Of a DNA stretch of 64,000 bases, positions 557 to 63,713 are shown one piece after another (position 1 is the stretch's first letter; every line of letters begins with the position of its first letter). The stretch is taken from assembly GCA_001600695.1 (NCBI GenBank), contig BCKQ01000008.1:62001-126000 (forward strand), written 5' to 3'. The position numbers and the translations under genes were made by a program. A model generated the notes under the pieces. That model did no database searches. It was not told the origin of the DNA and saw only the letters and a list, made by a program, of their open reading frames with translations. This DNA is from Ascoidea asiatica JCM 7603 (Eukaryota > Fungi > Ascomycota).

Positions 557-1117
557 CTAATTAGACTTTTTAATATTGACAGGATAACAAGAGTTGTCAA
601 CTTTGGAATCACAAACAAAATAATTAGACTTGCTGAAATTTTTCATATCTTGTTTTTTAGAATGACCTTTGGAGTCAGCAAAATAGTTTTTGCAAGCATA
701 ATATGTTTCCCTGTTACCATTTTTGCATAAGTAATTTTCAGTATCAAAGGTATATTTAGCATCCGGGTTGGATTTATCTAATTTCAATGAATGGCTTCCA
801 TCATCATTACCAAAATTGACATTTAAAGTTTTTCCTTTGTTTTTGGAATCATTTGGAGTTGCAGTTAACTTGCAGTCAGTTGGATTATAAGTTAAGGTTT
901 TCTTATCATTGTGAGAGTTTCCAAGGTAGAAGTAATAATCCCCATTGTCATCTTCCTTGATGTTAAGACCATAATTGTTGACTTGTTTGTAATTAGGAGC
1001 ATAAGCAGTTAAAGAACAATCGTAGTTAGATTTACGTTGGGAATTTGGACCACCAGGAACAGCAGCAGAAAAAGCAGTAGTAGCAGCGGCTAAGATGGCT
1101 AAAAGTTGAAGTTGCAT
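557..1117 (-). CDS. Secreted Rhd3/Pga29-like cell-wall-family protein, copy A1 (no GPI tail)
   Basis: 186 aa; signal peptide MQLQLLAILAAATTAFS-AAVP; shares GLNIKE..G.YYFY.G, YACKN and C.P.NIK motifs with three paralogs in the window; motifs resemble Candida Rhd3/Pga29-Pga31 as recalled. Confidence 0.85.
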   Translation of the reverse strand: MQLQLLAILAAATTAFSAAVPGGPNSQRKSNYDCSLTAYAPNYKQVNNYGLNIKEDDNGDYYFYLGNSHNDKKTLTYNPTDCKLTATPNDSKNKGKTLNVNFGNDDGSHSLKLDKSNPDAKYTFDTENYLCKNGNRETYYACKNYFADSKGHSKKQDMKNFSKSNYFVCDSKVDNSCYPVNIKKSN

Positions 1118-2587
1118 TTTTTAGATTGGAAGTTAGACTGGAGAGACAATTTTCAATGAGATGAGGAAATTAGTAGAGGTTACTAGATATTATTGTTTGA
1201 TGGTAAAGAAAGAAGACAGAAGAAAGAGAAAGAAAGGAAAAATAACTTTGAAATAAAAACTTGGAAATTCTGTAAGTATTTATAGTAAAAAACACTGATA
1301 TTTGAAACTGAAAAATTTGTGGCTTTGAAAATAGTTTTTCGAAGTAAAAGTAATTCCATTTGGTGAAGATTTCCTTTGACTTGGGACTTTTGAAAAACTC
1401 ATAAGTAAGCACAAACAGCAATTTGGTGAACTTCATTTTATATTTTGGGAAAACCAAAATCCAAAAAGAGCTGAAGCCTTTGGTTGGGTATATATTATTG
1501 GTTTTACAGAAATAGCAGGAATATGGTGAATTGGGAATTAAGGATTTCCTCCAGCAAAATATTTTAACTCAGACTCCAGATATTACTCACTGTAGGTATG
1601 TTTGGATATTAATTCACAACAATACTGGTATCCAGGGTATATTTTAAGAATTGCGAGAAAGAATATGGTAATATAATAAATGAAAATAATTGAGATTGTT
1701 TGAAGATGAATGGGGTTTGTTGGTCGGGAAGCCAGATATGAATTTGAATAGTGCAAGGGTACTGAGGTTACCGGTATGAAAGGTGAAATAAACAGAATAC
1801 GAGAAAAGCCGACTTTAGAAGGAGTGAATTCATTAGGGAATTGGTATAATATGGAAAGACGAGAAACTGCAGGAATCGCTGAAAGTGTTTGGGTTTGCTA
1901 TTGTATAAATCAATTCCATTTATATTTCAGAGGCCTGTATAGTTTTGTGATTTTCGGTGTACCAAACTAAAGTTTTATTATTTTCGTCAGTATATTGGTA
2001 GGTTTTAACGTTTAGCAGTCGCTGAAGGCTGAAAGAGTGACAATTACGGCAATGGTATGGGATATGGTAATGGAAAGGTTTTTACGGTAACTTCCGGCAT
2101 TCGGTGCTTTAATTAAAGAAAACTAGCATGGATGTAGTTTGATGTGTGACCAGATGTGCACATACATATCTCAAATAAATGAAAAAACCTTGGTTATCCG
2201 GATTATTCAAATTGTGTCCATATATCGGGTTTTGGTTTCTGCAGGTTCTGCATGGAACATCACCATTTTGTATTTCTTCTTCTGGGAAAGTGTACCCGGT
2301 ATTCTGTTTCTGTTTAAAAGTCGTTGAATATCCTATACGTATTTTATGTAACTGCTTTATCGTTCAGCTTCTCTGTGGAAGTCTAAAAAAATTATTTACA
2401 CATTTAAATTGCAATAAGAAGAAAGAAGTAGGTAATAAAGTGGATATTTATTTAATTGGGATATATATTTTATATATACAACATAAATATTTAATAATCA
2501 GAAATAAAGAAATAAGCTCTGATTATAATAGAAATAGAATTTTTGATAAGAAGAAGAATGACAAGTTGCCTTGATTTAAGATTAAGC

Positions 2588-3196
2588 TTAACATTTCTTG
2601 ATGTTGATAGGAAAACAGGAATCATGAACTTTTGAAGCAACAATGAAGTAATTGGATTTGGTAAATGACTTAAAACCACCTTTCTTTTGAGGACCTCTTG
2701 AGTTTTTGAAGCAATCTTTACAAGCCCAGTATGTTTCCTTATTACCATTTTTTAATAAACAATTATCATTACCAAAAGTATACTTGGAGTCAGAACCTGA
2801 TTTATCTAATTTTAATGAACGAGGACCACCATCATTTCCAAAATTGACATTCAAAGTTTTGCCTTTGTTTTTGGAGTCATTAGGTCTTGCAGTCAATTTA
2901 CAATCAGTAGGATCATAATTTAATGTTTTTCTATCATTATAAGAATTTCCTGCATAAAAATAGTAATCTCCATTATCATCTTCTTTGATATTAAGACCTA
3001 AATTGTTAATTTGTCCATAACCAGGAGCATCAATAGCTAAAGAAACGTCAAAATTAGATTGCTTAGATTGTCCATTGTTACCACCATTATTATTCCCATT
3101 GTGACCTCCTTGTTGATTATCACGTTGAGCATCAGGAACTGCTGCAGCTAAAACAGCGGAAATGGTTGCTAAAATAGTTAAAATTTGGATTTGCAT
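2588..3196 (-). CDS. Secreted Rhd3/Pga29-like protein, copy A2
   Basis: 202 aa; signal peptide, short Gly/Asn insert, then the same domain as A1 (LGLNIKEDDNGDYYFY, DCKLTA.PNDSKNKGKTLNVNFG, WACK, CFPINIK). Confidence 0.85.
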   Translation of the reverse strand: MQIQILTILATISAVLAAAVPDAQRDNQQGGHNGNNNGGNNGQSKQSNFDVSLAIDAPGYGQINNLGLNIKEDDNGDYYFYAGNSYNDRKTLNYDPTDCKLTARPNDSKNKGKTLNVNFGNDGGPRSLKLDKSGSDSKYTFGNDNCLLKNGNKETYWACKDCFKNSRGPQKKGGFKSFTKSNYFIVASKVHDSCFPINIKKC

Positions 3197-5230
3197 TTCG
3201 ATGAAAGAATTGAGGTAAATTGATTAAGTAAAATTAATAAATTTAATAGAGGCAGCTGAGAGAAAATAATTTCAATAGAATGATATTTTTAATGAAAAAT
3301 AATAAATTGGTGCTATTTTTTGAAAGAACAGTAATAATATATAAACTAGTGATGAAGAATTAATTATAATCAACTATTCCTAAAATTGAAGAATCCACGA
3401 GGTATTTATATCAATTGATTTAATTTAATTTTCTGATAATATTTTTGCTTTACAAACTTCTTTACAAAAGAATCTGAAATAAAGCTACATCAGTAAAAAG
3501 TTAATCCAAAAACAGTAAAGAAATTTCGTTTCCAGTTAAAAACATAAAAAAAACATAGCATAAAAAAGTTGGGAGTCTAAAAATTGCCTCCATGGATACC
3601 ATAGGAGAAACTAATACCACTACTAGTTACCATTAATGAAAAAATATTTAGATATTACTTCTTTTGATCGCAAAGCTGATTATATTTACAAACGGGGGCT
3701 TAAATTATAGGTTTTCGAGAAATAGCTTTGCAGAATAGATATTATTCTTTCATTAGAGAACCTATCATGAATATGTATTTAATTGCAGGTTTATTCTTTT
3801 CACGTAAACTTTTTACTAAGCCCAGACCCTTCTTAAAAAAAGCAAATAAAAAGTCCTTTGAATTTTATAATACACAAATGGTTAACGCTATTTGGTATTG
3901 AAGTTAAATTAGTTTCGCTAAATATTTTGAAAAATTAACTTGGAATCCCTCTGATTTCCTTTTAGAGCATTATTTATTGATGAATAAAGTAAAAACATTT
4001 GTGTGCCCACAAGATATGTGATCCTAAATTATTTATCCAAAACATGCATGAGGAAAATAGATTCATTGGTTACTGAACTTACGGGTTTTGAATACATATG
4101 AAATAATGAACAATTTCAATGGGTTTACCAAACTTCAGTCAGTTTCAATAAAAAATAATGATTATAAATAATAATTTCCATAGTAACCTTTGAAAAAGAA
4201 AAACAATCCAATTTCACAAAGATCAAAGAATTTGAAAATTATTGCTCGCTTCTAAATTTGTTTATTCGCATGTTCGTTAATTCTTTTCTTTTATCCATGT
4301 TTATTCTAGGTGAAATCATTGATCTTAACTTCATATGCCGAAAATCAGGTAAATAAAAACATTTGCATGCATGTACAGTTGGCAAGAAACTTCAGTGCAT
4401 GAACCTGAATTCAACGAGTCGAGTTGCAGATTTACGTTCAAGCCTTGTTGAAATATAAAAAGTTACTACTATTGCTATTACTACTGTAGTTTTAATAGCA
4501 GGTAGCTGGGAAAAGATGAAATTCTAGATTGAATTCCAACAAAATTCAGATTTAAAAGAGTGACTAATGCTAGAAAATATTCCCCACTCGAAATAATGAT
4601 GTTCAAATAGAATACTTTACTTACAGAAAAAGTAATAATGCCATTCAGAGATAGATAAATAAAATTAATCCAACAATAAATCAGATTAAATTGCTTTTTC
4701 TTTATACCATAATAAATTTATTCAAGGAAAGTCAGTAATTGTCAAATACTCTAAAAGAACTGCTTAATTTGAATCTTTCTAATTTTTTTTTTTTTAATTA
4801 TTCACAATCTGAACTTTAATGTTGAAAAATAGTACTTGTTTGTTGAAATATTACACATTCACAAATCTTGTTGAGCCAAAGAAATCTAGACCAGATTTTC
4901 AAATTCGGCTTTTTAAAAAAATACCTGTCTTCTGGGGTAAACTAACTCTTTTTCTGAGCGATTATTCTTATTGGGATTTGAGCTAAGAGAAGAAGCAAAA
5001 GTAAAATAAAAACAGTATACCCTGGTTTACCGAGTGAAGTATCATAATTCTTTCTTCACAAACATATAAAATAGCCTCCAATTAGAAGTTTTCCCACTCT
5101 CTGGTATTTTTCTGTTGGTTAAATAAATAGCTTCGACTACGTTTAAGTGATCCAGATCTTAATCGACGCCAATGGCAAAATCATTGCCACATACTATTTT
5201 CTGAAGAGCGGCTAACAACAACACTAGACA

Positions 5231-5303
5231 GGGCGTGTGGCGTAGTTGGTAGCGCGTCTGCTTAGCGTGCAGAAGGTCTCCGGTTCGACTCCGGACTCGT
5301 CCA
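5231..5303 (+). tRNA. tRNA-Ala(AGC), intronless
   Basis: 73-nt cloverleaf with G3:U70 alanine identity pair; anticodon stem TCTGC/GCAGA with loop TTAGCGT (AGC at 5264-5266); GGTTCGACTCC B box; T-run downstream. Confidence 0.97.
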
Positions 5304-5409
5304 TTGTCTCTATACTTTTTGTATATCTGTTTTATTATTTATTCATAATTGGAAGGAAGCTATTTTGTAATTCATTGTCACCGATGAACGTTATATCTTG
5401 ACTAGTTTG

Positions 5410-5466
5410 GCTGATTTAGCTCAGCTGAAGATCTGAAGGTCCTGTGTTCGATACACAGAATTAGCA
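5410..5466 (+). pseudogene. tRNA-Phe(GAA)-derived relic with 16-nt internal deletion
   Basis: GCTGATTTAGCTCAG joined directly to CTGAAGATCTGAAGGTCCTGTGTTCGATACACAGAATTAGCA; acceptor stem and T arm intact; D-loop, 3' D-stem and 5' anticodon stem missing; followed by an oligo-T terminator. Confidence 0.85.
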
Positions 5467-6300
5467 ATTTTTTTTTAAATGTTTTCCGGTACTTTTTTGT
5501 AGTTTTTTAGATTGGTTCAAACTCTCGATTTGCATTATGGGTAAATTGATCAAAAATATACAATAAATTCATATCAAATTAAATCAAATCAAATAGAAAT
5601 GCAAAATAGTTGACAAAACTTAATTACTCAATTAACTATATGAATTAACACACACTCAGTTGAAATTCTTTATCTTTCTTTCAATTACTACTTTTCTGTT
5701 TCTATTATTATTATTTGATACTTTTGTCCTTTTCTATGAAAATTGAAAATAAATGAGATATAAATATATTTATTATCATATAATAAATTAAGTGTCAAAG
5801 TAATTGAAACCATTAAACTAAAATGTTACTCAACTTACTGTAAATTTAAATGTAAATTCAGATATTCTTATTATAACTCAACCAATTGAAGAAGAAAAAA
5901 AAAAATAGAGAAAAAAAAAGGAGGAAAAAAATAATAATATTGCAACACAAGGTAGACAAAAAAAAATAGATAGATTTTATAATTAAGTGAGGAATGTAAA
6001 AATGAATTTAAATTCTTGATGAAGGAAAAACATGAAAAAAGTTTTAGGTATTAAAAAGATATATGAAAGCTCTTAGACAAAAAATGTAATAATAGTCAGT
6101 ATTGAAATCAAAATTATTAAAAAAGAAAGATACAATTACAAGAAAGTCAATAAATTAAAAAATGAAATTGAATTGCCCAATAAGAGAAATTAAGAAAAAA
6201 AAGATTATTTAAAGTTGAGATTAAGATAAAAATGATGCAATTTTAAAAGAATAATAATAAAAATTAAACAAAAAAAAAAGGTAAAAAAAAATTCTAAAAT

Positions 6301-9300
6301 TTAATCTACCTCTGTAACAAAAAGTTTATAAATGAAATCATTAATTATGGATATTTTTAATGAATAATGAATTATTATACATAAAATTAAAATATAGCCA
6401 CTTATTGTGAATATATTCCTAGAATTTATTTTACTTTCCATATTACTCTTATGTTCAATTTTCATATTCATGATTTGATTTTTAATCATTATTTCTGAAT
6501 TAATGCTATTTTCTCCAATATTGGTTATAGAGTATGTTATACTACTGTTATTATTATTAGTTGGAATAGAGCTATAATCACTAATTCTTTCAATAGTTTC
6601 TTCACTAGTGGTTACTTTCAATATTATATTATTATTGGTAATATCTTCTGTTATTTCTTCAACTTCATCTATAGGTATAAAATCTTCATAATCTTCACTA
6701 TCACTACCATTTGAAATTTCATTTGAAAATTTCAATTTAGCTTCTTCTATATTTTCATTTTTTTCACATAAAAATGAATTACTTGATTTATCATAATTTT
6801 GATAATCTTTATTTTTGGAAATTCTACTGAATTTTAATGATTTTTCATTAGATAAAATTGATGGTAATTCAATTTCTTCAAGTTCTTCCTCTAATTCACT
6901 ATAGCTCTCATCATATTCCAGAATATTCTCTTCGTTTACATTTGAATCCACTAAATTATTTTCATTTTCATTTAAAAAACTTTCGTCCAAAAAACTGTCA
7001 TCATTGTTTGATAAAATATTACCAACTGATAGATTTCTATCTAGTAAATTTTCAAATCCTTCAAGAATATTTATATTAACATTATCTTCACAACCATTAT
7101 CATTTACATCATTCTCCAATTCATCAGGATCAAAATCACTTTCATCTTGATTATTATTATAACTTTCATTTTCATTATCATTATCATTATTATTATCATT
7201 TTCACTATCGGCAAATTCGTCATCAATATCATGAATTACCGAGAGTTCATTATTTACTTCATTTTCCATATCTAAATTATTTTTATCATTGAAATCTTTA
7301 TTAATATCATTTAATTCTAATATTAACTTTTTGGAACTATTGGATTTTGGAATGGTTGTAGAATTAGGTGGTGTAGGTAATAAATCTAAATTATTTATTT
7401 TACTATTACTTCTACTCTTACTATTGCAAAAATAAGATGATAATTCATCTTGTAATGAAATTTTTTTTTTTATAGTTTTTCTATTTGATGAAACTAAACT
7501 TTTCCTTCTATTCTTATCTTTAAATTGACTTTTTCTAGTTTTTAAAGGAGAAGAAAGATTTGAATTTGGGTAATTATTATAATCAAAAGAATTTTCATTA
7601 GGTGAACTTTCATTAGGTGAGTTTTCAGCTGAAGAAAAATAATTTGATGAAAAATTTGATGAAAAATTTGGATTTGGCTTTGGAAATGATAATTGTGGTG
7701 TACTGACTATTCTACTATTCTTATTTTTATTATTTTTTATACTATTATTATTATCATTATTAATAATATTTTCATCATTATAAATATCGCTTAAACTTGG
7801 TTTATTCATATCAATTATATTTTCAATTTTTAAATTTGAATTTGAAAAAATATTTTGATTCGAAAATGGAGATAATGCAGAAGGTGATCTAAATTTATTT
7901 GATTTAAAAGAAGGAGATCTAGAACTGGAATGAAAAGCAGGTAATGAACGTTTGGGTGATAAATTTAATGATTCTTTTCTTTTAGAAGTTTTTGAATTAA
8001 ATATACTTTCATTATTAAAACTGTTTTCAAAATCATCATTACTATTATTATAACTACTGTTATAACTATTATTAAAGCTATTTGTAAAACTATTATTTAA
8101 ACTATTGTTACTACTATTATCATTTTCATTATAATCAAATATTAAAGATTTATCTTTTTTAGTGAAATGAAAATCAACTTTTAATTTTGGTAAAGATAAA
8201 TTAATATCCTTACTTGAAGAAGAATTAGATAATAATGATAAAGTTGAATTCAGTCTTTTATCATTTGGTGAAAATTCTAAAGTTGTATTAGTATTTGAAT
8301 TATTATGATGAATATTCAATGAATCTTTTGAAATTTGAGATTTTAAAATTTGAGATTTTGGATGACGTAAAATAGGTGTTGAATTAAAATTAGAATTTAA
8401 AGTGAGATTTAAATTTAGGCTTGAAGAAGTTTTATTTAAAGATTGATTATTATTAATATAAGGATATTTTATCGGAGAAATCTTTAAGGAAGAAGAAATT
8501 GTGGGAGTTAAAATATGATCTAAGAACTTTTCATTATTTCTTAATTTTCGTGGTCTTTTTTTCCCCTGTTTTTCATTAGATTTCTGTAATTTATTTGATT
8601 TATGAGACTTATGTGATTTATTTGATTTATTTGATTTATTTGATTTATTTGATTTATGTGATTTATGTGATTTCTGAGATTTAGAAAACTTATTATAATT
8701 ATATAATTTATTAGAATTAATAAAATTTGGAGAGATTTCAGATTTTGTTGATTTTAAAGATTTATTTGAATTATCAGAAATATTGAATAAAAGATTTGGA
8801 GTAGAGCTAAAATGAGATAAATTTGAGTTATTCAAATAATGTATAGAATATTGAGATCTTTTTGGAGGATAATAATAAGAAGGAGAAACTATTGAAGAAG
8901 ATGAAGATGAAGATGAAGATGATGATGATGAATAAGATGAAAAGGATCTGGAAGGAGATAAAGAAGATAAAGATATAGAAGAAGAAGAAGATAAAGGTAA
9001 TGAAGAAAATGAATGAGATCTAATTTTAGTTAAATTTGATTTTAAATTATTAAATTGATTAGTTAAATTATTTAATTGATTATTAAAATTATTAATTTGA
9101 TTTGAATACATTTCATTTTCTTTTTTTAAATTATCAATAATTATTAAATCATTATTTGAATCTCTTTTTAAATTATTAACATTTGAATTTAAATTTAAAT
9201 TTGATTCAATAAAATTTAAATGATTTAAATTTTTTGAATTTTCAAGATTTAAATTAATTAATTGATTATTTTTAATATTTAATTTATTAATTAATAAATT

Positions 9301-10254
9301 TTGTTCATTTTCTAAATTTAAAATTATTTCATCTCTATATTTTAATTCATTTTGAAAATTTTGAAAAATTATATCAAAATTTAAATTATTATTATTAGTA
9401 GTAGTAGTATTAGTGTTGGTATTATTATTATTATTAGTTGATAATGAAGAAGATGAAAGATTACTTGAAATATCACTATCAGAAGATATAGATAAAATAT
9501 TTTGATTCTTAATTTTATTTATATTATTAGCATTTATATCATTTATAACATTTTTATTTATGAGTAATTCATTTTGATTAATTATTATATTTGAATCATC
9601 ATAAGATATATTTATATTATTATTTATATTATTATTTACATTATTTATATCGGCGGTTAAATTATTTTTTATATCATTTTCTAAGTTAATTTCAGTATTA
9701 ATTTCTTTACTATTATTATCATCATTATTATTATTATCATTATTATGATAATTATTATTGTGATCTTTGATGGTATTTTTATTATTATTATTTTGATTTG
9801 ATAAAATATTATTTGATTGACAATTAATTAGATCATCAAATAAATTTAAGAAATCAAATTTATTTAAATAAATGATTTTATTATTATTAATATTATTATT
9901 ATTATTAATATTTAAGTTATCAAGATAAAGTTGAATTAAATCTCTTGAATTTTTATTTAATAAAGAATATTTATTTAATTTCATTGTTATTTCTAGTATA
10001 TCTATTAAATTTAATAATTCCTTGATTGAAATTTTACCTAAATTATTAAAATCAATTTTTGACCATGCTTGATCAATTATTGAAGTATCCAATTTTGAAT
10101 TTGATATGATTTTATTGTCATTTTTATAATTGTTATCATTGTTATCATTGTTATCATTATTCTCATTGAATTCATTTAGTTCATTATTGTTTAAATCATT
10201 ATTTGTAGGATCATTTGAAATTGTCGGAAGCAGAGATATTTCTATTTCAGTCAT
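6301..10254 (-). CDS. MPS2: Mps2-like nuclear-envelope/spindle pole body membrane protein with very long N/S-rich expansion
   Basis: 1317 aa; N-terminal IIDQAWSKID..GKISIKELLNLIDILE...FLNLFDDLIN resembles the Mps2 N-terminus; coiled coil near aa 295-410; single hydrophobic segment IFTISGYILILCIIIHYSL near the C-terminus. Confidence 0.55.
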   Translation of the reverse strand: MTEIEISLLPTISNDPTNNDLNNNELNEFNENNDNNDNNDNNYKNDNKIISNSKLDTSIIDQAWSKIDFNNLGKISIKELLNLIDILEITMKLNKYSLLNKNSRDLIQLYLDNLNINNNNNINNNKIIYLNKFDFLNLFDDLINCQSNNILSNQNNNNKNTIKDHNNNYHNNDNNNNDDNNSKEINTEINLENDIKNNLTADINNVNNNINNNINISYDDSNIIINQNELLINKNVINDINANNINKIKNQNILSISSDSDISSNLSSSSLSTNNNNNTNTNTTTTNNNNLNFDIIFQNFQNELKYRDEIILNLENEQNLLINKLNIKNNQLINLNLENSKNLNHLNFIESNLNLNSNVNNLKRDSNNDLIIIDNLKKENEMYSNQINNFNNQLNNLTNQFNNLKSNLTKIRSHSFSSLPLSSSSSISLSSLSPSRSFSSYSSSSSSSSSSSSSIVSPSYYYPPKRSQYSIHYLNNSNLSHFSSTPNLLFNISDNSNKSLKSTKSEISPNFINSNKLYNYNKFSKSQKSHKSHKSNKSNKSNKSNKSHKSHKSNKLQKSNEKQGKKRPRKLRNNEKFLDHILTPTISSSLKISPIKYPYINNNQSLNKTSSSLNLNLTLNSNFNSTPILRHPKSQILKSQISKDSLNIHHNNSNTNTTLEFSPNDKRLNSTLSLLSNSSSSKDINLSLPKLKVDFHFTKKDKSLIFDYNENDNSSNNSLNNSFTNSFNNSYNSSYNNSNDDFENSFNNESIFNSKTSKRKESLNLSPKRSLPAFHSSSRSPSFKSNKFRSPSALSPFSNQNIFSNSNLKIENIIDMNKPSLSDIYNDENIINNDNNNSIKNNKNKNSRIVSTPQLSFPKPNPNFSSNFSSNYFSSAENSPNESSPNENSFDYNNYPNSNLSSPLKTRKSQFKDKNRRKSLVSSNRKTIKKKISLQDELSSYFCNSKSRSNSKINNLDLLPTPPNSTTIPKSNSSKKLILELNDINKDFNDKNNLDMENEVNNELSVIHDIDDEFADSENDNNNDNDNENESYNNNQDESDFDPDELENDVNDNGCEDNVNINILEGFENLLDRNLSVGNILSNNDDSFLDESFLNENENNLVDSNVNEENILEYDESYSELEEELEEIELPSILSNEKSLKFSRISKNKDYQNYDKSSNSFLCEKNENIEEAKLKFSNEISNGSDSEDYEDFIPIDEVEEITEDITNNNIILKVTTSEETIERISDYSSIPTNNNNSSITYSITNIGENSINSEIMIKNQIMNMKIEHKSNMESKINSRNIFTISGYILILCIIIHYSLKISIINDFIYKLFVTEVD

Positions 10255-11366: not shown

Positions 11367-13214
11367 ATGTCTGATACCAAATCAAATATCATTCAATCTC
11401 ATCTACATTCTCAATCTGAATCTCAAATTGAATCTCAAATTGATTCTCAAATTGATTCTCAAATTGAATCTCAGCTGGATGATAGTGACAGTGATTCTGT
11501 TGCCAGTGTTCAATCAATTCCAATAGATTCTCAAATTGAAGATATTCAAGAAATACAAGAACTAGAACAGATACAACAAATACAAGATATTCAAGAAAAT
11601 CAAGATAATCAAGATAATCAAGATAATCAAGATATTCAAGATAATCAAGATATTCAAGATATTCATGAAATCAAAGATACTCAACCCACTCAACCCACTC
11701 AACCCACTCAACCCACTCAACCCACTCAACCCACTCAACCCACTCAACCCACTCAACCCACTCAGGAAACTCAAGACATTCAAGATATTGAAGATATTCA
11801 AAATATAAATAATATTCATAACATCCAAAACATTAATGATAATCAAGACATTAATGATACTAAAACTAATAAGGATTTTGAAGATAATTTAGAAACTGAA
11901 AAGATTTTAAACATTAAGAATAATAATATCAACAAAAAAAAATTTAAAAATAATAATGATAATCAAGATAATGAAAGTGATGAATTAAGTGATTTAGATG
12001 ATGATTTCATGTCTGCTGCTGAAAATAATGATCAACAATTTAATCAAAAAACAACAAATGCTTTAATTAATTTAAACTCAAATTCAAATTCAAATACAAA
12101 TTCAAATTCAAACACTTTAATACCAAAATATAATACTTTTTATAATTCAATTAAAAAAAAAAAATTGAATTTTTTTCTTTTTGATAATTCTATTGAAAAT
12201 TCAAATTTAGAAAATTTAATTCTTTTAAATAATGGTAATTTAATTAAAAATAATAATATAAATTTATCAAATGAATTATTTTTATTAAAAAATAAAAATT
12301 TATTAATTGATTTAATTATAATTTCAAAATTTTTTAATAAAAATTTTTCAACTTATAATCCAAATTTTATTAATAATTCAATTATTAATCATATTCAACA
12401 AAATTTATCATCTTATAAAAATTTACCTTTAAATGATATAAATGATATAAATGATATAAATGATATAAATGATATAAATAATATAAAAATAATTCAATTT
12501 AATTCAAATAATTCAGATAATTCAGATAATAATGATATTCAAATTATTGATATTAATAATCCAGAAGAAAGATTACCAAATATAAATAGAGTTAATCAAA
12601 TTAAACGTGTAAATAAAAAATATAATAAAAATGAATTTACTCAAGAAGAAGATTCAATAATAATTGATCAAATTAAAAAAAATCCAAAAAAAAGAGGTAG
12701 TCATAAATTTTTTGATAATTTAGCTAAAAATTTCTTACAAAAACATACTGGTAATTCAATTCGTTATAGATTTAGAAATGTACTTTCAAAAGATTTAAAT
12801 TATGTTTATAATGATAATTTATCTTTCATTATTAATATTTCTGATGTTCCTTTAGCTCAAAGAGTTAAATTTAATGCTAATGATGATTATAATTTATCAA
12901 CACATATTATTTCTTATCTTAATAAAAAATATAATAATAATAATCATAATGATATAACTGATTTATCAAGTAATGGAGAAAATAAAAGTACAGTTTATAA
13001 AGTTGATGAAAGAAATCAATTTTCTTTACCAAGTGTACCATTAAGTTTCTTTGATGATTTTAGTAAAAAAAATAATAATCATTCAAAATTTGCTTGGAAA
13101 GATAGATATAGAAAATTTATTTTAAAAAATGGAGTTATTAATTATATTAATTATTATGAAAATGAAATTAATAATAATAGAGTACCAATAGAAGCTAGAA
13201 AAGATTTATTAATC

Positions 13215-14335: not shown

Positions 14336-16033
14336 TTAAAATGAATTATTTAATTTAAATAGTTCATTCAAACTTTCACTGTAATTACTTCTATAATTAA
14401 TGTCTTTTACTATTTCTTTTCGCCTTTTCAATATGGATAATATTTTGGTAATATTTTGTTTATTAAACTTAAAATTTTTTAAGTTTTCAGAAAATTTAAA
14501 TAATTGATTCATAATCTCTAATCTTATTAAAGTATCTATTCTGAAAGTTTCATTTTGATTAATATTCAGATTATTGTTATTAATTGATTTATAAAAAATA
14601 GATAAGATTTTTGAAAAAGATTGAATCATATCAGTATCACTAGGATCATAATTTAAAATTAAATTAAAATTCTTTTCTGAAGAAGAAATCACTTCATTTT
14701 TATTTTTTTCAATTAAGGGAGTATTCATTGATAGAATGAAATTGAAATTGTTAATTTTATTAATATTAATATTTTCCTCAGTTTCATTAAGTTCATTATT
14801 TTCAATAAGATTTAACTTATTAAATTGAGTATAATCTAATGGAATTATATTAAATTTAAATTGAATAAAATCTCTGAAAGTTTTGATAATTTGATAAAAA
14901 TGATAATTAATTAGGTTATGTAATCTTTCCTGAACTAAGTCAGAATTAAAATAATCATTTGATGAATAAATTAAATAAAAATTCAAATTTAAAACTAAAA
15001 CAGTTGAATTATCATTATTTAATAAGGTTTCATTATTTAGTGAAGTTTTATTATTTAAGGAAGTTTCATCTTCAAATGAAACTGGATAGTAATTTAAAAT
15101 TGAATAAGTATTTAAAATTTCTAATAATTGAGTATAATTTTTATTCAAAAGATTATACTCAAATGAAAAAGAATTTGATAAAATTGTTTGAGTTATATAA
15201 TAAGGTAAATCATTATTATTGATTGTTATTAAAGTATAATATAAAATACTTTGTCTTTTGAATTGATCAATATAAATACCTAATTGATCATCTTTATCAT
15301 AATTTGAATGATTATTATCATTATCATTATCATCTTCATTTTCATTATTATCAAATTCATTGAACTTAAATTCTTTATTGTTCAAAATTAAACTATTCGA
15401 ACCCTCAGAATTAGATAAACCATCAGATAATTTATCTTGTTCATAATTCATATTCAATAAAATTAAATCTACGAAATAATTATTTATTTCTTCTTCATCA
15501 TTGATCATAAAATCTAATTGGTTTGAAATTATTGATCTATCAGGTTTAATATTTTTTGGGTCAAATATAGTTAAGTTGAAATTTAAATCAATTAAATTCT
15601 GAGTGTTTTTATTTTTAATTTCATGATTAATTTGAAATTGAGTTGCAAGATTTAAATCTGGATAAGTTATATTATCTATTGAATTAAGGAATATTGGAAT
15701 ATTGAAATGTAAATCTTTTAAAGAATTATTATAATTTGATAACTTCTCTATTAATTCATTACTTGCGTAATTCAAGTTGTTGTGATGGTATATCTGAAAA
15801 ATAATTGAAACTATTGAAACTATTAGAGATAGTAATAACACTAGCTGAAATGAATTATCACCTCGTTTCCTACCCTGAGCACCTTGAACATTAGTTGCTT
15901 CTGTAGCTTGACCATTAGTTGTCTCAATAGCTTGACTATTAGTTGCTACTGTAGCTTGACCATTAGTTATCTCTGTTGACTGGTCATTGATTGCCTCTGT
16001 AGCGGAGTGTTCTTGTTCTCGAATTTCTTCCAT
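14336..16033 (-). CDS. Divergent PIG-S/Gpi17-like protein lacking the C-terminal transmembrane region
   Basis: N-terminal TM, then DLHFNIPIFL..YPDLNLATQFQINH and ILYY...NDLPYYITQTILSNSF, which match Gpi17 motifs. First ATG is at 16033 (the ORF-track start 16075 is GTG). Five 24-nt repeats at 15884-16003. Confidence 0.7.
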   Translation of the reverse strand: MEEIREQEHSATEAINDQSTEITNGQATVATNSQAIETTNGQATEATNVQGAQGRKRGDNSFQLVLLLSLIVSIVSIIFQIYHHNNLNYASNELIEKLSNYNNSLKDLHFNIPIFLNSIDNITYPDLNLATQFQINHEIKNKNTQNLIDLNFNLTIFDPKNIKPDRSIISNQLDFMINDEEEINNYFVDLILLNMNYEQDKLSDGLSNSEGSNSLILNNKEFKFNEFDNNENEDDNDNDNNHSNYDKDDQLGIYIDQFKRQSILYYTLITINNNDLPYYITQTILSNSFSFEYNLLNKNYTQLLEILNTYSILNYYPVSFEDETSLNNKTSLNNETLLNNDNSTVLVLNLNFYLIYSSNDYFNSDLVQERLHNLINYHFYQIIKTFRDFIQFKFNIIPLDYTQFNKLNLIENNELNETEENININKINNFNFILSMNTPLIEKNKNEVISSSEKNFNLILNYDPSDTDMIQSFSKILSIFYKSINNNNLNINQNETFRIDTLIRLEIMNQLFKFSENLKNFKFNKQNITKILSILKRRKEIVKDINYRSNYSESLNELFKLNNSF

Positions 16034-40769: not shown

Positions 40770-40976
40770 TTATACAATTAAAGCTCTGATTGGAATATGA
40801 ATTAATTTTACACCATAACCAACAATACCCATCATTATGAAACCAACACCAACAGCTTGTATAATTTGTAAATATTCTTTTTTATTTGGTTTTGTACATT
40901 TTTTAATAAAAGAAGAACCTTCTTTAATGAAATCTACTGGAGTTTCAATTAATTTTTCAAAACCATCTGAAGCCAT
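40770..40976 (-). CDS. SSS1: Sec61 translocon gamma subunit
   Basis: 68 aa from the ATG at 40976: FIKKCTKPNKKEY...GFIMMGIVGYGVKLIHIPI; the ORF-track upstream extension starts at GTG and looks non-coding. Confidence 0.96.
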   Translation of the reverse strand: MASDGFEKLIETPVDFIKEGSSFIKKCTKPNKKEYLQIIQAVGVGFIMMGIVGYGVKLIHIPIRALIV

Positions 40977-47812: not shown

Positions 47813-48013
47813 CTATAGAACAGTTCTTTGAGTATGATTATTTGAATTACCTGGATAATTGGATAATTCTATTGAATTTTGATTATTATTGTTATTATTA
47901 TTATTATTATAATAATCAGAATTTTCACCACCAGAATTAGTTGAAGCTATATTAGAAGCAGGATTATAAGAAGTATCTTTTTTATAATCATTTGTATCAT
48001 ATAAAGTTGTAGA

Positions 48014-48056
<43 letters not shown>

Positions 48057-48589
48057 GTATTAAAAGGGTTTAAATTTGAATTTGAATTTGAATTTGTTGA
48101 AATTTCATTATAATAATTTGGAGTTTCATCTTTTGGTGGATACATATTTGGATTTGCTAATGGAGTAAATTTTGGTTTTGATTTTTTATTAAAGAAATTA
48201 TTAAATTGATGATTTGAATCATTATTTATATCTCTTTTATTTTTATTATTATTATTACAACAACATGAACAACATTTTATAAAACAACAACATAAAGCAG
48301 AAATACAAGTTACACCATAACAACAAACTTGAATTATTGTACTTAATAACCAAAGAATTAATAAACCTGCAATTATACATAAAGCTATTACAACCCATTT
48401 ACAAGTTGTATTTTCTTTACATGTACTCCAACTTTTAAAAGAATCTGCAGTTGATACAGTTGAATCATAAGCATTTTCAACACTACTTGCAGTATCAACA
48501 GCATTTGCAAAAGAATCTCTTATTACTAAACCAATTTTATTTGGACATAAAATATCCTTTTTTTGAAAAATTTCATATGGAATATACAT
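47813..48589 (-). CDS. PIN2: Pin2-like single-pass membrane protein with Cys cluster and Asn-rich tail
   Basis: SFKSWSTCKENTTCKW, TM, GVTCISALCCC; N/Y-rich cytosolic tail; adjacent to the VAM3-like gene as in S. cerevisiae. Confidence 0.8.
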
Positions 48590-51172: not shown

Positions 51173-51174
<2 letters not shown>

Positions 51175-56904: not shown

Positions 56905-58542
56905 TCAAATAATATCATAGAAATGATGTTTTGTTATTCTTGGAACCATTCTTGGTCTATCTCGAAGTCTCATATTTAAATAAGTTCTCATATCAAATAT
57001 TCGAATATCATCTCTAATATTTTTAATTTTTTCACAATCTTCATTATTTAATTCAATTCCATTAATTAAAAGCTTTTCAATGAATTTTGGAAAATAATTC
57101 AAATCAATTGAAATTATTGGATTCATTATAACATTTAAGTATTTCAATTTCTTACAATCATTAAACCAATTTGGAAATTCTGTTAATTTATTAAAATTTA
57201 ATGATAAAACCATTAATTTTTCTTTAAAATAATAAATTGAAGATTCAAATTCAATTTCTTTAATTTGATTTTTATAAAATATTAATTTCTTTAATTTTCT
57301 TAATCCACTCATATTCTCAACTTTAATTATATCATTAACACTTAAATCTAAAACTATTAAATTTTTTAAATTATTTAAATTCTCAATTTTAGAAATATTA
57401 TTTTGAAATAGATTTAAATATTTTAATTTCTTGAAATTTAATAAATCTTTTGATAAAACTTCAATTCTATTATGTGATAAATTTAATTTAATTAAATTTT
57501 TAAAATTTTTCAAATTTTCTATAATCCTTATATTATTATTTGATAAATTTAAATATTTTAAATTTTCATTAATATATAATAAATCTTTTGGAATTTTAAT
57601 TAAATGATTATTTGAAAGATTTAAAGATGTTAAATTATTTAAATTAATTAAAAACTTAAGATCATAAACATAATTTTCTAATGATTCTAAAGAATCAAAA
57701 CTTTCCATACTTTCATATGAAATAAATAAATTATTACTAATATCTAATTTTTTTAAATTAATAAATTTAAAAGAATTCATACAATTCAAATCAATTAATG
57801 AAAAATCATTTCCTGATAAATTTAATTCATATAAATTTGAAAATAATTTTAAATCATTCAAATTCATACTCTTTAAATTATTAATATCTTTAATATTTCT
57901 ATCTTTTAAATCTTTTTTTAATATTGTAATTAAATTATCTGTTAAATTTATTGATTTTAAATTTGGAAATATTTTTGTATTTGAAAAAAATAAAATAAAT
58001 GACCAAAATTCAAATGTTGTACCAATATTTGATTTAAAAATTTCAATTTTTCTTAAATTTTTATATATATTTTTTGATAAAATTTCTTTAAATTTTCTAA
58101 TTGAATTCCAAGATTGTAAATTTATTTCTAAATTTTTAACATTAATTAAATTTTCAAATTCTTCAATATTTATTATTTTATATTCTCCAAAATTATCAAA
58201 ATAATATCTTTTAAGATATTTTTTATTTATAAGTTTATATTCATTATTTTTTAATCTTAATCTATCATCATTCTCAGAAATATCATAAACTAATACATTT
58301 TCATATAATCTTAAATCACTAAAATATTTTATTAATGGAAATTTTGAATATGAAATGAAATACAATTCTAAAGAAGGAATATATTTAAATATTCTTTCAA
58401 CAATTTCATATGGTAAAACATTTATATAATCTGTTAAAAAATTTATTGGAGTTTTTTTTATATCGATTGTATTTATTGAAATTGAATTCAAATTATTATC
58501 AATAAAATTAATACCTGATGAATCTTTAATAGACTGAAACAT
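56905..58542 (-). CDS. F-box plus leucine-rich-repeat protein
   Basis: LPYEIVERIFKYI F-box motif, then about 10 LxxLxLxxNxI repeats; first ATG is at 58542 (the ORF-track start 58611 is TTG). Confidence 0.85.
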   Translation of the reverse strand: MFQSIKDSSGINFIDNNLNSISINTIDIKKTPINFLTDYINVLPYEIVERIFKYIPSLELYFISYSKFPLIKYFSDLRLYENVLVYDISENDDRLRLKNNEYKLINKKYLKRYYFDNFGEYKIINIEEFENLINVKNLEINLQSWNSIRKFKEILSKNIYKNLRKIEIFKSNIGTTFEFWSFILFFSNTKIFPNLKSINLTDNLITILKKDLKDRNIKDINNLKSMNLNDLKLFSNLYELNLSGNDFSLIDLNCMNSFKFINLKKLDISNNLFISYESMESFDSLESLENYVYDLKFLINLNNLTSLNLSNNHLIKIPKDLLYINENLKYLNLSNNNIRIIENLKNFKNLIKLNLSHNRIEVLSKDLLNFKKLKYLNLFQNNISKIENLNNLKNLIVLDLSVNDIIKVENMSGLRKLKKLIFYKNQIKEIEFESSIYYFKEKLMVLSLNFNKLTEFPNWFNDCKKLKYLNVIMNPIISIDLNYFPKFIEKLLINGIELNNEDCEKIKNIRDDIRIFDMRTYLNMRLRDRPRMVPRITKHHFYDII

Positions 58543-60137
58543 ATTTATAATAATAATCTGATTTTGGCAATTATGATAATTTTGAATATCTTTAAAAGAT
58601 AAATCTTGCAATAGAAGTTATTTGATTCGATTTATATTACTTTTATCATTACTTTTGTATTACTTTTATATTTCCTTGAAGATGGTAATTTACTGAAATG
58701 AAAACACCTTTGTAATACGGATGCTTTCTCACCAACTTTCGATGCGGAAAATTGCCCTTTTCTATAAATAGGCAGCACTGCCACAAATACAACGTAACTA
58801 GGGCAACATTCCTGTTAAAACGGGAAAATTCCAAATTTAAGATTTCAAAAAGCATCTTCCCACTGAAAAAAACATATTGAATTCCACAGAATTGTACAGG
58901 AATCTTGCATGATGTTTACCCCTGAAAGCTTGATTTTACGCAGGGTATATGCCTCATAAAGCAATAATCATTTGCAAATCAGGTTTTAAGGTTTCCCGGT
59001 TACGATTCCACTTCAATTTCTCAAAAGCCGGTTTACCAGAAAATCCCAGATAATATCAGTCTTTTCACTTAAATTTTTCATTTGAACTAAGCCAGTTTTT
59101 TTGTCTAAGTAGAATAAATATACTGGTGGTTCTTTTTTTTTTTTTCGCTGGTAATTGACCTAAATTTTCAAACTACTGTACTCCTTATTTGTAAAACTGA
59201 TTAAAACCTAGTAATTAATATTTAGACATACAGTATATCAACATAGTATAATAATAAAACTTTAACAATGGGAATCATTATGACTTTTATTAAAATTGAA
59301 TTTCTCTAAACAGTGAACTGTAATATATGCTCCTGCAAAAGATATCCCTAAACTTATTCATGGACTAGACCTAGGATTCATGAGGCTTATGAACGAAAAA
59401 TAAAACTTTTATGGTAATAAGTTTGAAAATTGATTCCATCGGCATATATTTCATCGGTGACCAAATTCTAATTTCAAATTCAAATACCATAAACAGCGTA
59501 TAAAATTAATTACTAATAGTCTCTAAAACTATCAAACTAATCATAATAATTGAGACCTCTGTATCTTTCAATGTTTATATCAATTTTTGCTATAATTCTG
59601 TTAAAAAATAAAAAATAAAATAAAATAAACTGATATTTGGATCTTTTCTTCAGAAATGGAAAGTTTTTATTCATAAATTGGAAACACAAATAAAATATTG
59701 CTCAACTTAATTCAATTGAATTACTAATTTGGCTTTATAAATTGCAAATACAGAAGTTACTAAAGTTGAATTATCTTTTGTGAAATATTGGGAAAATAAA
59801 ACATAATAAAAAATAATAAATTAATTCCCCAGTACTAGTAAAAAGAAATCCGAATAAGTTTAAAAAAATTCCAATTTTAAAGAAGTCAACTGACTATGTT
59901 TGGAAATAGAAGCTTAAAAGAAAATAAAAGAATATAAATATGGATTAAATCCCATTATATTTTTACTACTTTTAATCTCTTTTATTTCTTCAACCAACAA
60001 TATTAATTCAATTAGTTACTCACATTCGCTTATTAAATCAAAATTATAATTACTCAAATATTTAAATATTTAAATTTTTCCTAATTTATCACAAATAATA
60101 AATTTCTTCTTTAATTTCCTAAATTCTTCAATTCAAA

Positions 60138-60695
60138 ATGCAATTCCAATTATTAGCTATTTTAGCAACTGCCACTACTGTCTTTTCTGCTGCTGTTCCA
60201 GGTAATCAAGGCAGTCAACAAAAATCCAACTATGATTGTTCATTAGTTGCATATGCTCCAGCATATAATAAACTTGATAATTATGGTCTTAATATTAAAG
60301 AAGATAACGATGGTAATTATTATTTCTATGTTGGTTCTTCCAACTCAGATAAAAAGACTTTAGCTTACAATCCAACTGATTGTAAACTAACTGCTACTCC
60401 AAATGATTCTAAAAACAAAGGTAAGACCATGAATGTTAGTTTTGGAATTGATGATGGATCTAAATCCTTGAAATTACAAACTACTACTCCAGATGCTAAA
60501 TATACATTTGATGATAATAAGTTCTTACTCAAAAATGGAGAAAAGGAAACTTACTATGCATGTAAGAATTACTTAACTGGAACTAAAGGTAATTCCAAGA
60601 AAGATAATATGAAATCATTCAGCAAATCCAACTATATGATTGTTGCTTCTAGAACCGACAGTTCATGTTGTCCAATTAATATTCAAAAAGCTTGA
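60138..60695 (+). CDS. Secreted Rhd3/Pga29-like protein, copy A3
   Basis: 185 aa; closest by eye to A1 (KSNYDCSL.AYAP, YNPTDCKLTATPNDSKNKGKT, ETYYACKNY, FSKSNY). Confidence 0.87.
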   Translation: MQFQLLAILATATTVFSAAVPGNQGSQQKSNYDCSLVAYAPAYNKLDNYGLNIKEDNDGNYYFYVGSSNSDKKTLAYNPTDCKLTATPNDSKNKGKTMNVSFGIDDGSKSLKLQTTTPDAKYTFDDNKFLLKNGEKETYYACKNYLTGTKGNSKKDNMKSFSKSNYMIVASRTDSSCCPINIQKA

Positions 60696-61069
60696 ATAGA
60701 CATACTCTTTTCACTCTTTTATGAAAAAATATTTAATTTTCTTGAAATTCTTCTTTCTTTATAATAATCAGACAATTCAGGTTTTCTTGAACTTCTGTTG
60801 ATTTATTTCTTATTTTTATACTTCTTGTCAGAATATATTCCTGACTTCAATAAACAGCCTTTTTATCATTTCAATAAATCCACAAATTTTCTAATTTGAA
60901 CCAAAACCAATTTGTGTAAAATCTTTGAGAAAAAATAGATTCCATATTAGAAATTAAAGTAGACTTGCAATAAAGTGTTTGAGGAGAAATAATGAATTAG
61001 CCAAACTGGTTGAATTCCTTGTATGTTGAATATATGAAAGATATAGCAAAAAAGATAGCAAAAAAGAAG

Positions 61070-61142
61070 TGGACGAGTCCGGAGTCGAACCGGAGACCTT
61101 CTGCACGCTAAGCAGACGCGCTACCAACTACGCCACACGCCC
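61070..61142 (-). tRNA. tRNA-Ala(AGC), identical to 5231-5303
   Basis: Reverse complement matches the left copy at all 73 positions; oligo-T terminators follow on the minus strand. Confidence 0.97.
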
Positions 61143-63155
61143 TCTTTCTTGTCTTTTTATGCTTTCCATTTTAACACACTTGTATTGCACCAACCGATTA
61201 TATTGTATTTTGATGCTTATGATTAACAGCTCAACTACTACTCAACGATATACTATTTAAACGATTATCCTCAAAATGAAGTAATTGATAAAAATCATAA
61301 AACACTATATCAATTGATTTATCAAAATTGCTTACATTTCAATAACTTTTTTTCTATTTAAGATTATTTAAAAGTATAAATAGCAAAACAATTTTAAATA
61401 CATCTAAAAAACATGAATCTTTCTGACTTTTATATCTATAAAGAGTTAGATATAGATTATAATGAAAAAAACAATTAAAAATTATTATAAAAACATTGTT
61501 ATAGGAATTTTTATTTCGGAGATTCAAGAGTGAATCGGAGGGCATTTTGAAAGAATTTCATCCTTTTTTTTCATAATTAACTTTCAATTATTAGTTAAGT
61601 TTCTAATTATAAATCTTTATGATTAGTGGATCAAATAAGTACTTAAATAATCAAATTCGAGTAAACGTAAAAAAAATTATTATTCATTCAATATATGTGT
61701 AACTATTTATATCATATTTTGGAAACCATTTTATTGGTTCTTTGCAGTTTTATATGTTGAAATGGTAACACAACAAAGTATAATATTATCTACCAGTCTT
61801 CTTTGAGTAAATTTTAGTTCATTTTATCAAATGTTTATTAATTTTTTAATTACACTGCTTTTCATTTTTATTTTTACCCATTAAAAGGAAAATATCATTC
61901 AAAGAAAGATGCAAAGCAACATAAGAACATTCTGCCTCGGTTATTACTTTTTCATTAAATTTATTTTGAAATTTGACTTAACCAATAGAGAAAGAGCTTT
62001 TTTATTCAGCTTTAAGTAAAGGATTTCATTGATTTTCGAGATTAAAAATATCGCTTTTTACAAAAATGTAATTACAAAAACTTTATACCAATATAAAAAA
62101 ACGGTTACACCAGATTGAGACCTTCAATTATTGGAAATACTGATTGGTGTTGTCGAAGAAAATATAATGATCAGATATAAACATATTTGGTTTATAAAAC
62201 GAATAATTGGCTAATGACCATCAAGAACAGGATCTCCATAAATTCTAAACGCGAAATGATATATATTTCAGAGAAAATTCCTCTTGACTCTCAACAGGAG
62301 TATGAAAAAGTGGTTAATTTTAGAATTTTCAGACATCCAAATAAGGTTTAGAAGTCTGTTCACTACGGACTCAAACCTAATTTCCCAACTTAAACACTAA
62401 TGTGATTGCCAATGGTATTTCCTAATGTTATTGGCTGTTTGGATAAATTCATGCTTTATTTCCATCTTTTCCACCTACTTGTAGTTCCTTCGTTCTTTCG
62501 TTCTTTCGGCTATTTAAGTATACTCCTTTGATCATATTAAGTAGGACTCTTTGGGCTCATTGGGCTCATTGGACTCATTACTGAAAAATGTAATTGTAAT
62601 ATGAACCTAAGGTTCCAAGCGTGAAAAAAAAAATCATCCTCTTTTATTCAATGAATTGTATTCTATGCTGTCCAATAATGGTGAATTATATGGCTTTTGA
62701 ATTCTCTTCGATAATCTCAATTTCATGGAATAACTTTACCGTAGTATATTATTATTTAACCTAATTCTGACCACCAAATGCAATACCGGCCATTCCATAG
62801 AATACAAAATACTAGTAAATACAATTACATTTACCAAGTTCCTGGAGTAATTCAAATGAAGAAGAAAATAAAATCACCCAATTTTATGAGTTGTATTAGT
62901 TCTTTATGGTAGATGAAAAATCCAAAAGTAATCAATTCAACTCCTTTTTAGGACCAGCAACTAATCAGCCTTGGGTAATATTCGAATTGAGATGATTCAA
63001 TAACAAATCTGGTGGTTAGAAGATTATATAAATAAGTTGAGATTAGTTGTTTTTGTTTTTGATTGAGAGTATTGTTATTCATTATCAAACAGAAATCATC
63101 TCAGGATTTAATACAATAACCTCAAATCATTCGCTTGACATAACAACTTCTCAAA

Positions 63156-63713
63156 ATGAAATTCCAACTTCTCTCTCTTTTAACCTCAGTTTCTTCCATT
63201 TTAGCAGCTGCTATTCCAGGCTCTTCAACTACCTCTTCCACTGAAAGCTTTGGATTGATCATTGAAGCTTCCGAATATCTTGAAATCGATGCTCTTGGAC
63301 TTAATATCAAAGAAGGTATTCTAGGAACCTACTATGTGTATGTTGGGGAATCCACCACAGACTTCGAGACGGTGACCTATGATGCTATTGAAGGAACATT
63401 GTCTTGTGCTCTCACTGCTGCTGATAATGTTGTCAAATCTCTTACAGCTGATTTGGTTTCTGTTGGTACCTGTGAAGCTTTGATATTCAACTCATTGGTT
63501 GCAGATGTTAAATTCACCTTTGACCAGGATAATTATTTATTGAAGAATGGAGAGAAAAAAGAGTTTTATGCTTGTAAGAATATCTTCACAGATTTAGCTG
63601 ATTTATTGGATCTCACTGCCATTGTTGAATTCAATCAAGATAACTTCCTAATTGTTTCTACTAAATTCAACGACAACTGCCATCCAGTTTATGTTAAACA
63701 GTGTGGTTGTTAA
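63156..63713 (+). CDS. Secreted Rhd3/Pga29-like protein, divergent acidic copy A4
   Basis: 185 aa; signal peptide, LGLNIKEG..YYVYVG, KFTFDQDNYLLKNGEK, FYACKN, CHPVYVK. Confidence 0.85.
   Translation: MKFQLLSLLTSVSSILAAAIPGSSTTSSTESFGLIIEASEYLEIDALGLNIKEGILGTYYVYVGESTTDFETVTYDAIEGTLSCALTAADNVVKSLTADLVSVGTCEALIFNSLVADVKFTFDQDNYLLKNGEKKEFYACKNIFTDLADLLDLTAIVEFNQDNFLIVSTKFNDNCHPVYVKQCGC

Follow-up and report, generated by a model that had tools for sequence, protein, structure and literature searches.

The stretch analysed here, 64,000 nucleotides (nt) of the ascomycete Ascoidea asiatica JCM 7603 (contig BCKQ01000008.1, positions 62,001 to 126,000; hereafter, the window), carries two tRNA-Ala(AGC) genes and four paralogous genes for predicted secreted proteins, which we denote A1 to A4, on either side of a block of ordinary genes. 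On the left, A1 and A2 point outwards and the first tRNA gene (tRNA1) points inwards; on the right, A3 points outwards, tRNA2 inwards and A4 outwards (Table 1). The open reading frame (ORF) list, Rfam and ARAGORN confirmed this order and orientation, which had been set out in a preliminary description of the locus together with other features that also held: the two tRNA genes form a perfect 73-bp inverted repeat (73/73 nt), each lies upstream of and divergent from a family gene at nearly the same distance (2035 nt to the A2 ATG, 2014 nt to the A4 ATG), and A3 is nearest to A1 (70% identity by blastp, the highest of all pairs). Apart from the two tRNA genes, nothing in the window matches Rfam at gathering score; the A3 stop codon lies 374 nt from tRNA2, and tblastn found no fifth family copy in the window. 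Drawing on the window, protein databases and published papers, we find that the locus most likely adds a case to known yeast genome dynamics and is not a switch. It may well be what remains of one head-to-tail array cut by a single ancient inversion of about 58–60 kb at or beside the family genes.

Table 1. Features of the locus, in window coordinates
Feature	Position	Strand	Description	Source
A1	557-1117	−	186-residue predicted secreted protein, divergent DUF7907/Pga30-like	ORF list
A2	2588-3196	−	202-residue paralogue, proximal to tRNA1; 17-residue Gly/Asn/Gln insert following the predicted signal peptide	ORF list
A2/tRNA1 divergent spacer	3197-5230		2034 nt	
tRNA-Ala(AGC) copy 1 (tRNA1)	5231-5303	+		Rfam, ARAGORN
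tRNA1 3′ flank	5304-5453	+	Weak similarity to the tRNA2 3′ flank; possible remnant of a duplicated unit	
Inner block	6301-58542		About 22 ordinary genes	Pfam
LRR-gene/A3 divergent intergenic region	58543-60137		Inferred right breakpoint zone in the preferred model (alternative: A3 itself)	
A3	60138-60695	+	185-residue paralogue; 70% amino acid and 73% nucleotide identity to A1	
tRNA-Ala(AGC) copy 2 (tRNA2)	61070-61142	−	ARAGORN start at 61069, one extra flanking base	Rfam
tRNA2/A4 divergent spacer	61143-63155		2013 nt	
A4	63156-63713	+	185-residue, most divergent paralogue; acidic (pI 4.1)	

The remaining blastp identities within the family are 59% (A1/A2), 55% (A2/A3) and 31–36% (A4 versus the others; 32–36% versus A2), and the longest inverted repeat of the window is the A1/A3 pair, with 73% nucleotide identity over 554 nt. 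Synonymous divergence (dS) among A1, A2 and A3 is 1.5–1.7, identical codons at identical residues fit the expectation under saturation in all six pairs (|z| < 1.8), and no two family genes share an identical run longer than 17 nt. This combination of synonymous saturation and short identical runs indicates that all events at the locus are old. Mosaic tests for gene exchange were non-significant (27, 114 and 227 of 300 permutations), and the family genes appear to have gone without sequence exchange for a long time. A crossover inside A2/A3 was considered and rejected: a chimera test gave the predicted trend (A1 matching A3 at 24 sites and A2 at 4 in the 5′ part, 61 versus 66 in the rest), but 27 of 300 permutations matched it. 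In a tree of 21 proteins, comprising A1–A4 and 17 yeast-like relatives taken from the 26 that were retrieved, all trimmed to 185 residues, A1–A4 are monophyletic (support 100/99) and A1, A2 and A3 form a sub-clade (97/95) whose internal order the tree leaves unresolved. An unrooted amino acid quartet favours A1+A3 against A2+A4 (sites 9/2/1; resampling of estimated log-likelihoods (RELL), 0.92) and rejects A2+A3 (approximately unbiased (AU) test, 0.04). On these data A1 and A3 are favoured as sisters, though not securely, and A4 may either have split off first or be a rapidly evolving sister of A2, two options between which synonymous sites cannot discriminate.

All four proteins have a hydrophobic N-terminal leader, as judged by eye, and end directly after the domain, with no C-terminal Ser/Thr stalk or glycosylphosphatidylinositol (GPI) signal. 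A4 is strongly acidic (isoelectric point (pI) 4.1), whereas A1–A3 are basic (8.7–9.0; A1, 8.7), a split that suggests divergence of function. No Pfam family matches A1–A4 as its own, and none of the four matches PF25484 directly. An exhaustive search of 1.84 billion sequences with an A1–A4 profile gave four matches at E 0.001 or better, three of which are yeast-like proteins matching DUF7907 (E 2e-7 to 3e-4); a bacterial Cna-B protein, P0123, was removed from the matches as false and repeat-driven. No close orthologue was found in this search, and a single-sequence search with A1 passed none of 76 candidates. The nearest Atlas clusters are DUF7907/7909 (0.93–0.94), and a widened profile, already seeded with three DUF7907 relatives, returns 25 proteins, one of them named Pga30; an hhalign comparison with C. 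orthopsilosis Pga30 gave a probability of only 10%. The structure model of A1 is of middling confidence (predicted local distance difference test (pLDDT) 63, predicted template modelling score (pTM) 0.62) and has 12 strands. Nearly all the rows listed for it by Foldseek are β-trefoils (best E 0.066), as are, by title, most of the 50 VIA rows (best Z 8.5, root-mean-square deviation 5.0 over 136 residues); at 2–14% identity, these matches speak to fold class only.

A1–A4 are thus probably a divergent, GPI-less offshoot of the DUF7907/Pga30-like wall proteins with a β-trefoil fold, and their role would be that of secreted, wall-associated or glycan-binding proteins. Similarity to Candida Pga29 (Rhd3), Pga30 and Pga31 and to DUF7907 (PF25484) is remote (roughly 25–30%) and comprises G-L, a Y/F-rich strand, ACKN blocks and the N-terminal hydrophobic leader. 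Unlike these relatives, A1–A4 lack the Ser/Thr stalk, the GPI tail and the HEGA-type motif, contain five or six cysteines and form a long-branched clade of their own; the relatives P0122, P0133 and P0138 are likewise tail-less. In C. albicans, Pga29, Pga30 and Pga31 belong to the GPI proteins of the wall, which is defective in pga31 mutants (PMC2649418, PMC7730094). The A1–A4 clade is undescribed in the searches made, among which those of the literature were not aimed at this locus or at the family in Ascoidea.

How far the arrangement exceeds chance depends on what is counted. Of the 271 tRNA genes of A. asiatica, 8 are Ala(AGC); the corresponding figures for A. rubescens are 172 and 6 (PMC6701816, Table S4). 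Given the A. asiatica counts, an assumed genome of 15–20 Mb and random tRNA placement, chance alone should give a genome 3–5 inverted pairs of same-anticodon tRNAs no more than 60 kb apart; the probability that two tRNAs drawn at random have the same anticodon is P = 0.031. Chance, which the preliminary description had named as an alternative, therefore covers the inverted tRNA pair alone, which is ordinary; it does not cover the shared anticodon combined with the same divergent position beside the same family. That conjunction makes a duplicated tRNA+gene unit the likely source, and such an old duplication, also proposed earlier, is further consistent with the A1–A4 clade and with a weak likeness of the tRNA 3′ flanks. 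Functional copies of a tRNA isoacceptor are under constraint, and this, rather than flipping of the block, is the likely reason that the two tRNA copies are still identical.

The mirror symmetry is confined to the tRNA genes and the diverged coding sequences. A blastn comparison of 1–6400 with 58401–64000 gave four strong matches, namely A1/A3, A2/A3 in two pieces and the tRNA genes. The two spacers agree in length to 21 nt; among 276 pairs of intergenic lengths, as roughly estimated, 3 match within 2%, the spacer pair counted. Residual similarity between the spacers, whose absence the preliminary description had listed among the points that would speak against its reading, was undetectable, the best local score being equalled by 1 of 40 block shuffles and lying off the diagonal. 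Anchored alignments of the A2 and A4 promoters are ordinary (9–18 of 40 background pairs score equally high), and in the upstream spacer and flank comparisons, 0 of 12 beat all 40 shuffles. Three of 12 downstream comparisons did so, but these matches were discarded as short, low-complexity, T- or AT-rich and at non-equivalent positions. The sole non-coding hint between paralogues is a likeness of the A2 and A3 proximal promoters (0–1 of 40 background pairs as high, z 1.3–1.9), which is non-significant over 36 comparisons. The sequence TATAAATA is present upstream of all four genes, at −129 to −214.

The tRNA 3′ flanks are weakly similar over 100–150 nt: their score is reached by 2–18 of 1000 block shuffles (the first 50 nt being non-significant), by 3–20 of about 3700–4000 overlapping intergenic windows (0.1–0.5%) and by 1–15 of about 450–510 T-rich windows (0.2–3%). 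The likeness hints at a common segmental origin and at nothing beyond it. Similarity of the 5′ flanks is non-significant (50–191 of 1000 block shuffles as high), and RNAfold on the tRNA was uninformative (z −0.3). Beyond A4, in GC-richer DNA (37%), a 72-residue open frame at 63784–64000 (minus strand), with no Pfam match, enters from the right end of the window towards A4 and is possibly the 3′ end of an outer neighbour gene.

These comparisons bear on one history that needs no net inversion. A tRNA+gene module would have been copied in inverted orientation 56 kb away, as a repeat of the flip/flop (FF) type; it may have flipped while the copies were alike, homogenisation would then have ceased, and local duplications and losses would have produced A1–A4. 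The module plan is that of the FF repeat, in which lineage-specific genes have a tRNA upstream of them on the other strand (PMC9731477), and the agreement in spacer length, the weak 3′ flank likeness and the grouping of the tRNA-proximal genes A2 and A4 in the unrooted quartet all point the same way. Set against these are the spacers, which are without homology, and the identities: with A2 closer to A1 and A3 (55–59%) than to A4 (32–36%), this history needs fast A4 evolution or conversion and, to place A3 at the right end, another long-range event or reciprocal losses. We regard it as unlikely, though the strongest of the alternatives.

Rearrangement offers other routes. On the seven-element order A1− A2− tRNA1+ block A3+ tRNA2− A4+, we enumerated 28 single inversions, of which eight give a co-oriented run of three family genes and three a run of four. 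Flipping 5304–61069 at the tRNA genes, by which the preliminary description had assembled a three-gene array, does produce the run of three; seven other single inversions equal it and three better it, so that 11 of the 28 do as well or better. A1 and A3 become neighbours in two reconstructions only. Inversion from A1 through the block, up to its leucine-rich repeat (LRR) gene, restores the order tRNA–A2–A1–A3–tRNA–A4, with all four genes co-oriented and the tRNAs directly repeated, each preceding a gene by about 2 kb; inversion from A2 through A3 leaves A3–A1 on one side and tRNA–A2–tRNA–A4 on the other. In either case the twin tRNA modules are explained by tandem rather than dispersed duplication, and the tRNA is a passenger.

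A one-off crossover between the inverted tRNA-Ala genes, which would have inverted 5304–61069 and moved A3 away from A1 and A2, fares less well in this enumeration and is in our estimate improbable. It would leave A2 and a tRNA separating the likely sisters A1 and A3, and its ancestor, A3–tRNA–A2–A1 plus a distant tRNA–A4, also needs a dispersed inverted duplication. Non-WGD (whole-genome duplication) yeasts have a bare 74-bp tRNA-Ile inverted repeat at an FF-like region, where flipping has been dated after expansion of the repeat (PMC9731477). Such a crossover nonetheless stays in consideration, given the roughly threefold enrichment of tRNA genes at yeast breakpoints and at sites of gene gain (PMC2675101); conversion between short paralogues also happens at a low rate (PMC3924818). 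A literature search on ectopic recombination at tRNA genes returned no match. An old inversion, as suggested in the preliminary description, is thus a reasonable route to the present layout, whereas the enumeration, in which the flip keeps A1 and A3 apart, lends no support to the tRNA genes as its breakpoints.

A similarly improbable set of histories involves other single or multiple rearrangements, such as inversion of the inner block through A4 or transposition of the tRNA1–A2–A1 block, or a partly coincidental insertion of family genes beside tRNAs. Inversion of the inner block through A4 also restores a four-gene run with direct tRNAs; the resulting order, however, places the divergent A4 centrally, with A1 and A3 at opposite ends. 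Insertion has precedent, in that gained gene families often adjoin tRNAs (all five YPR071W-family genes, for example; PMC2675101), and Ascoidea species have 6–8 tRNA-Ala(AGC) genes (PMC6701816), but independent insertions must also account for the shared anticodon (P about 0.03) and the geometry.

The single-inversion history that we prefer would run as follows. A unit consisting of a tRNA, about 2 kb of spacer and a secreted-protein gene would have undergone a tandem duplication, from which the A2 and A4 lineages descend with one tRNA each; the gene on the A2 side would have duplicated further to give A1 and A3; and one inversion, with its left end at A1 or between or within A1 and A2 and its right end at A3, would have carried tRNA1 and A2, with or without A1, across the housekeeping block, so that the tRNA genes, until then direct repeats, became inverted. 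The breakpoints may even have left A1 and A3 themselves as inverted duplicates, through a staggered break or through a crossover between the two genes when they were recent and still similar; duplicates of this kind have been described at inversion breakpoints, in 17 of 29 cases in Drosophila (PMC1885836). The starting array is also plausible: C. albicans PGA30 and PGA31 have consecutive orf19 numbers (5303 and 5302; PMC2649418), which suggests that the wider family forms tandem arrays, and newly gained yeast genes adjoin tRNAs far above chance (33 of 96 sites; PMC2675101).

Several observations weigh against this history. The A1+A2 grouping survives the amino acid quartet test (AU p = 0.09) and has support of 71/32 in the 21-protein tree, and the nucleotide quartet over all positions is tied (25/25/13). 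A breakpoint scar or repeat common to 1–556 and 58543–60137 was not found by blastn. With margins of 556 nt to the left of A1 and 287 nt to the right of A4, the window may stop short of further copies or of the left breakpoint. Yeasts favour short over long inversions (PMC4937564), and parsimony on seven elements is weak evidence. Metagenome scans gave no syntenic loci, with 0 of 272 stretches confirmed for the A1–A4 alignment and 0 of 593 for the Rap1 Myb region, and the sole A. rubescens family match (P0125, GPI-type) lies on a 353-kb scaffold while CCT2 lies on another, of 1.13 Mb.

The preliminary description had further proposed that the segment may still flip. An active or polymorphic system at the tRNAs that reshuffles or switches the surface-protein genes could call on the perfect 73-nt inverted repeat and on the existence of flip/flop systems in the genus (the A. 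rubescens mating-type (MAT) locus, with 2-kb repeats; PMC6692504). We nevertheless judge it very improbable indeed. A length of 73 nt is below the roughly 200–250 bp needed for efficient recombination in yeast, under which events are rare (PMC3924818), and far short of known flip repeats (2 kb and 4.2 kb); neither the family genes nor the spacers are homogenised. No MAT-type (HMG, MATalpha, homeodomain), recombinase or transposon domain was found by Pfam in 24 ORFs or in the 158 other stop-to-stop frames that reach 45 residues, a search that exons shorter than 45 residues would escape. From the coordinates, moreover, a crossover at the tRNAs keeps the promoters of A1, A2 and A4 and moves A3 with its own, so no gene would be switched. 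The perfect tRNA inverted repeat is therefore no evidence for switching.

The window as a whole is gene-dense and AT-rich (GC 0.14–0.33 per 2 kb), with Asn-rich inserts in its proteins; CTG codons are scarce (10 codons, 0.8% of the Ser or Leu box), as are all GC-rich codons, and CTG scarcity was for that reason discarded as a marker of the species. The largest gene-free gap inside the inner block is about 2.2 kb. Genes of the block, named in yeast style from their Pfam domains except for CCT2, which was named by sequence comparison, encode a Rap1-type Myb protein, CCT2, a cyclin-dependent kinase (CDK), a short-chain dehydrogenase, an M16 peptidase, a TRP/FLC-like protein, Nop52, two synaptobrevins, a PDZ-protease, Sec61-gamma, Vps36, Mcm2, a syntaxin, a Set1-type protein and an LRR protein. 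CCT2 is nearest to that of Ascoidea rubescens (82%; next, 78–79%), and none of 10 window proteins that were looked up had an exact match in the protein collection.

The TRP/FLC-like channel gene (29930–31887, minus strand) is in three pieces, with an in-frame TAA at 31249–31251 and a frame change near 30570–30590, without canonical intron signals, and is either a pseudogene or an assembly error. The synaptobrevins (Snc-like; 35414–35749 and about 35927–36330, minus strand) are a tandem pair with 70–74% nucleotide identity, and the frame of the upstream copy shifts or ends near its last codons. The Sec61-gamma (SecE family) match at 40773–41225 (minus strand) lies in a frame absent from the 100-residue ORF list, and the N-terminal part of the Rap1-type gene contains a long repeat region with a 9-nt period (11500–11900; Q-D-x and Q-P-T units). 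A 1317-residue Asn-rich protein (6301–10254, minus strand) has a weak N-terminal EF-hand match (E 0.02) and a hydrophobic C-terminal segment, a layout that we take to resemble nuclear-envelope proteins of the KASH type. Three further minus-strand genes have no convincing Pfam family and encode a 565-residue protein with an N-terminal membrane segment (14336–16033), a 221-residue Gly/Gln/Ser-rich hydrophilin-like protein (22117–22782) and a 258-residue Cys-rich membrane protein (47813–48589).

Among known systems, the locus most invites comparison with the FF region of Saccharomyces chromosome XIV, which is described as having 4.2-kb inverted repeats, each made up of a tRNA-Ile and, on the other strand, two genes (Salzberg et al. 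2022, PMC9731477). Both consist of a block of ordinary genes between inverted modules, each combining a tRNA with lineage-specific, fast-evolving paralogues on the opposite strand. In the FF region, however, the repeats are 97.6% identical including intergenic DNA, their proteins are 96–99% identical, and inversion is a by-product of gene conversion; that system is also described with continual homogenisation, both orientations among strains, a 24-kb block and Centroid genes (PMC9731477). The A. asiatica window has neither a multi-kilobase near-identical inverted repeat nor homogenisation of A1–A4 by gene conversion: 73 nt are identical, the proteins are 31–70% identical, the spacers are unrelated, the modules face outwards rather than inwards, the block spans 56 kb and the proteins are secreted. 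It is quite improbable, though more credible than a system still flipping at its tRNAs, that the locus is a fossil region of this type with an independent origin in the Ascoideales, in which young inverted copies of β-trefoil wall-protein genes (A1/A3 or whole tRNA+gene modules) made a 56–60 kb essential-gene block invert repeatedly and which is still homogenised or polymorphic in some strains or sister species. Were both orientations to occur among strains, the locus would join the Saccharomyces FF region as an independent case of a tRNA-anchored flip/flop unrelated to mating type, and it would offer a way to ask what starts and stops repeat homogenisation, a question left open by the Saccharomyces study.

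The mating-type flip/flop (FF1) of Ascoidea rubescens, Ogataea and Pachysolen (Krassowski et al. 2019, PMC6692504) shares with the window the genus and a segment of similar size between inverted repeats (44 kb in A. rubescens). FF1 is described with 2-kb repeats, MATa and MATalpha genes at the segment ends, a silencing neighbour and, in A. rubescens, a non-coding segment (PMC6692504), whereas the window has a gene-dense block, no detected MAT domain and no inverted repeat of about 2 kb. A third comparison is with the tRNA-associated gained families and breakpoints of Gordon et al. (2009, PMC2675101), where, as here, a lineage-restricted, divergent family lies beside tRNAs at a likely site of rearrangement. 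The locus differs from the cases reported there in that the common anticodon and geometry point to duplication of a unit and not to separate insertions, making it a tidy example of how a lineage-specific family may grow beside tRNA genes and then be split by rearrangement.

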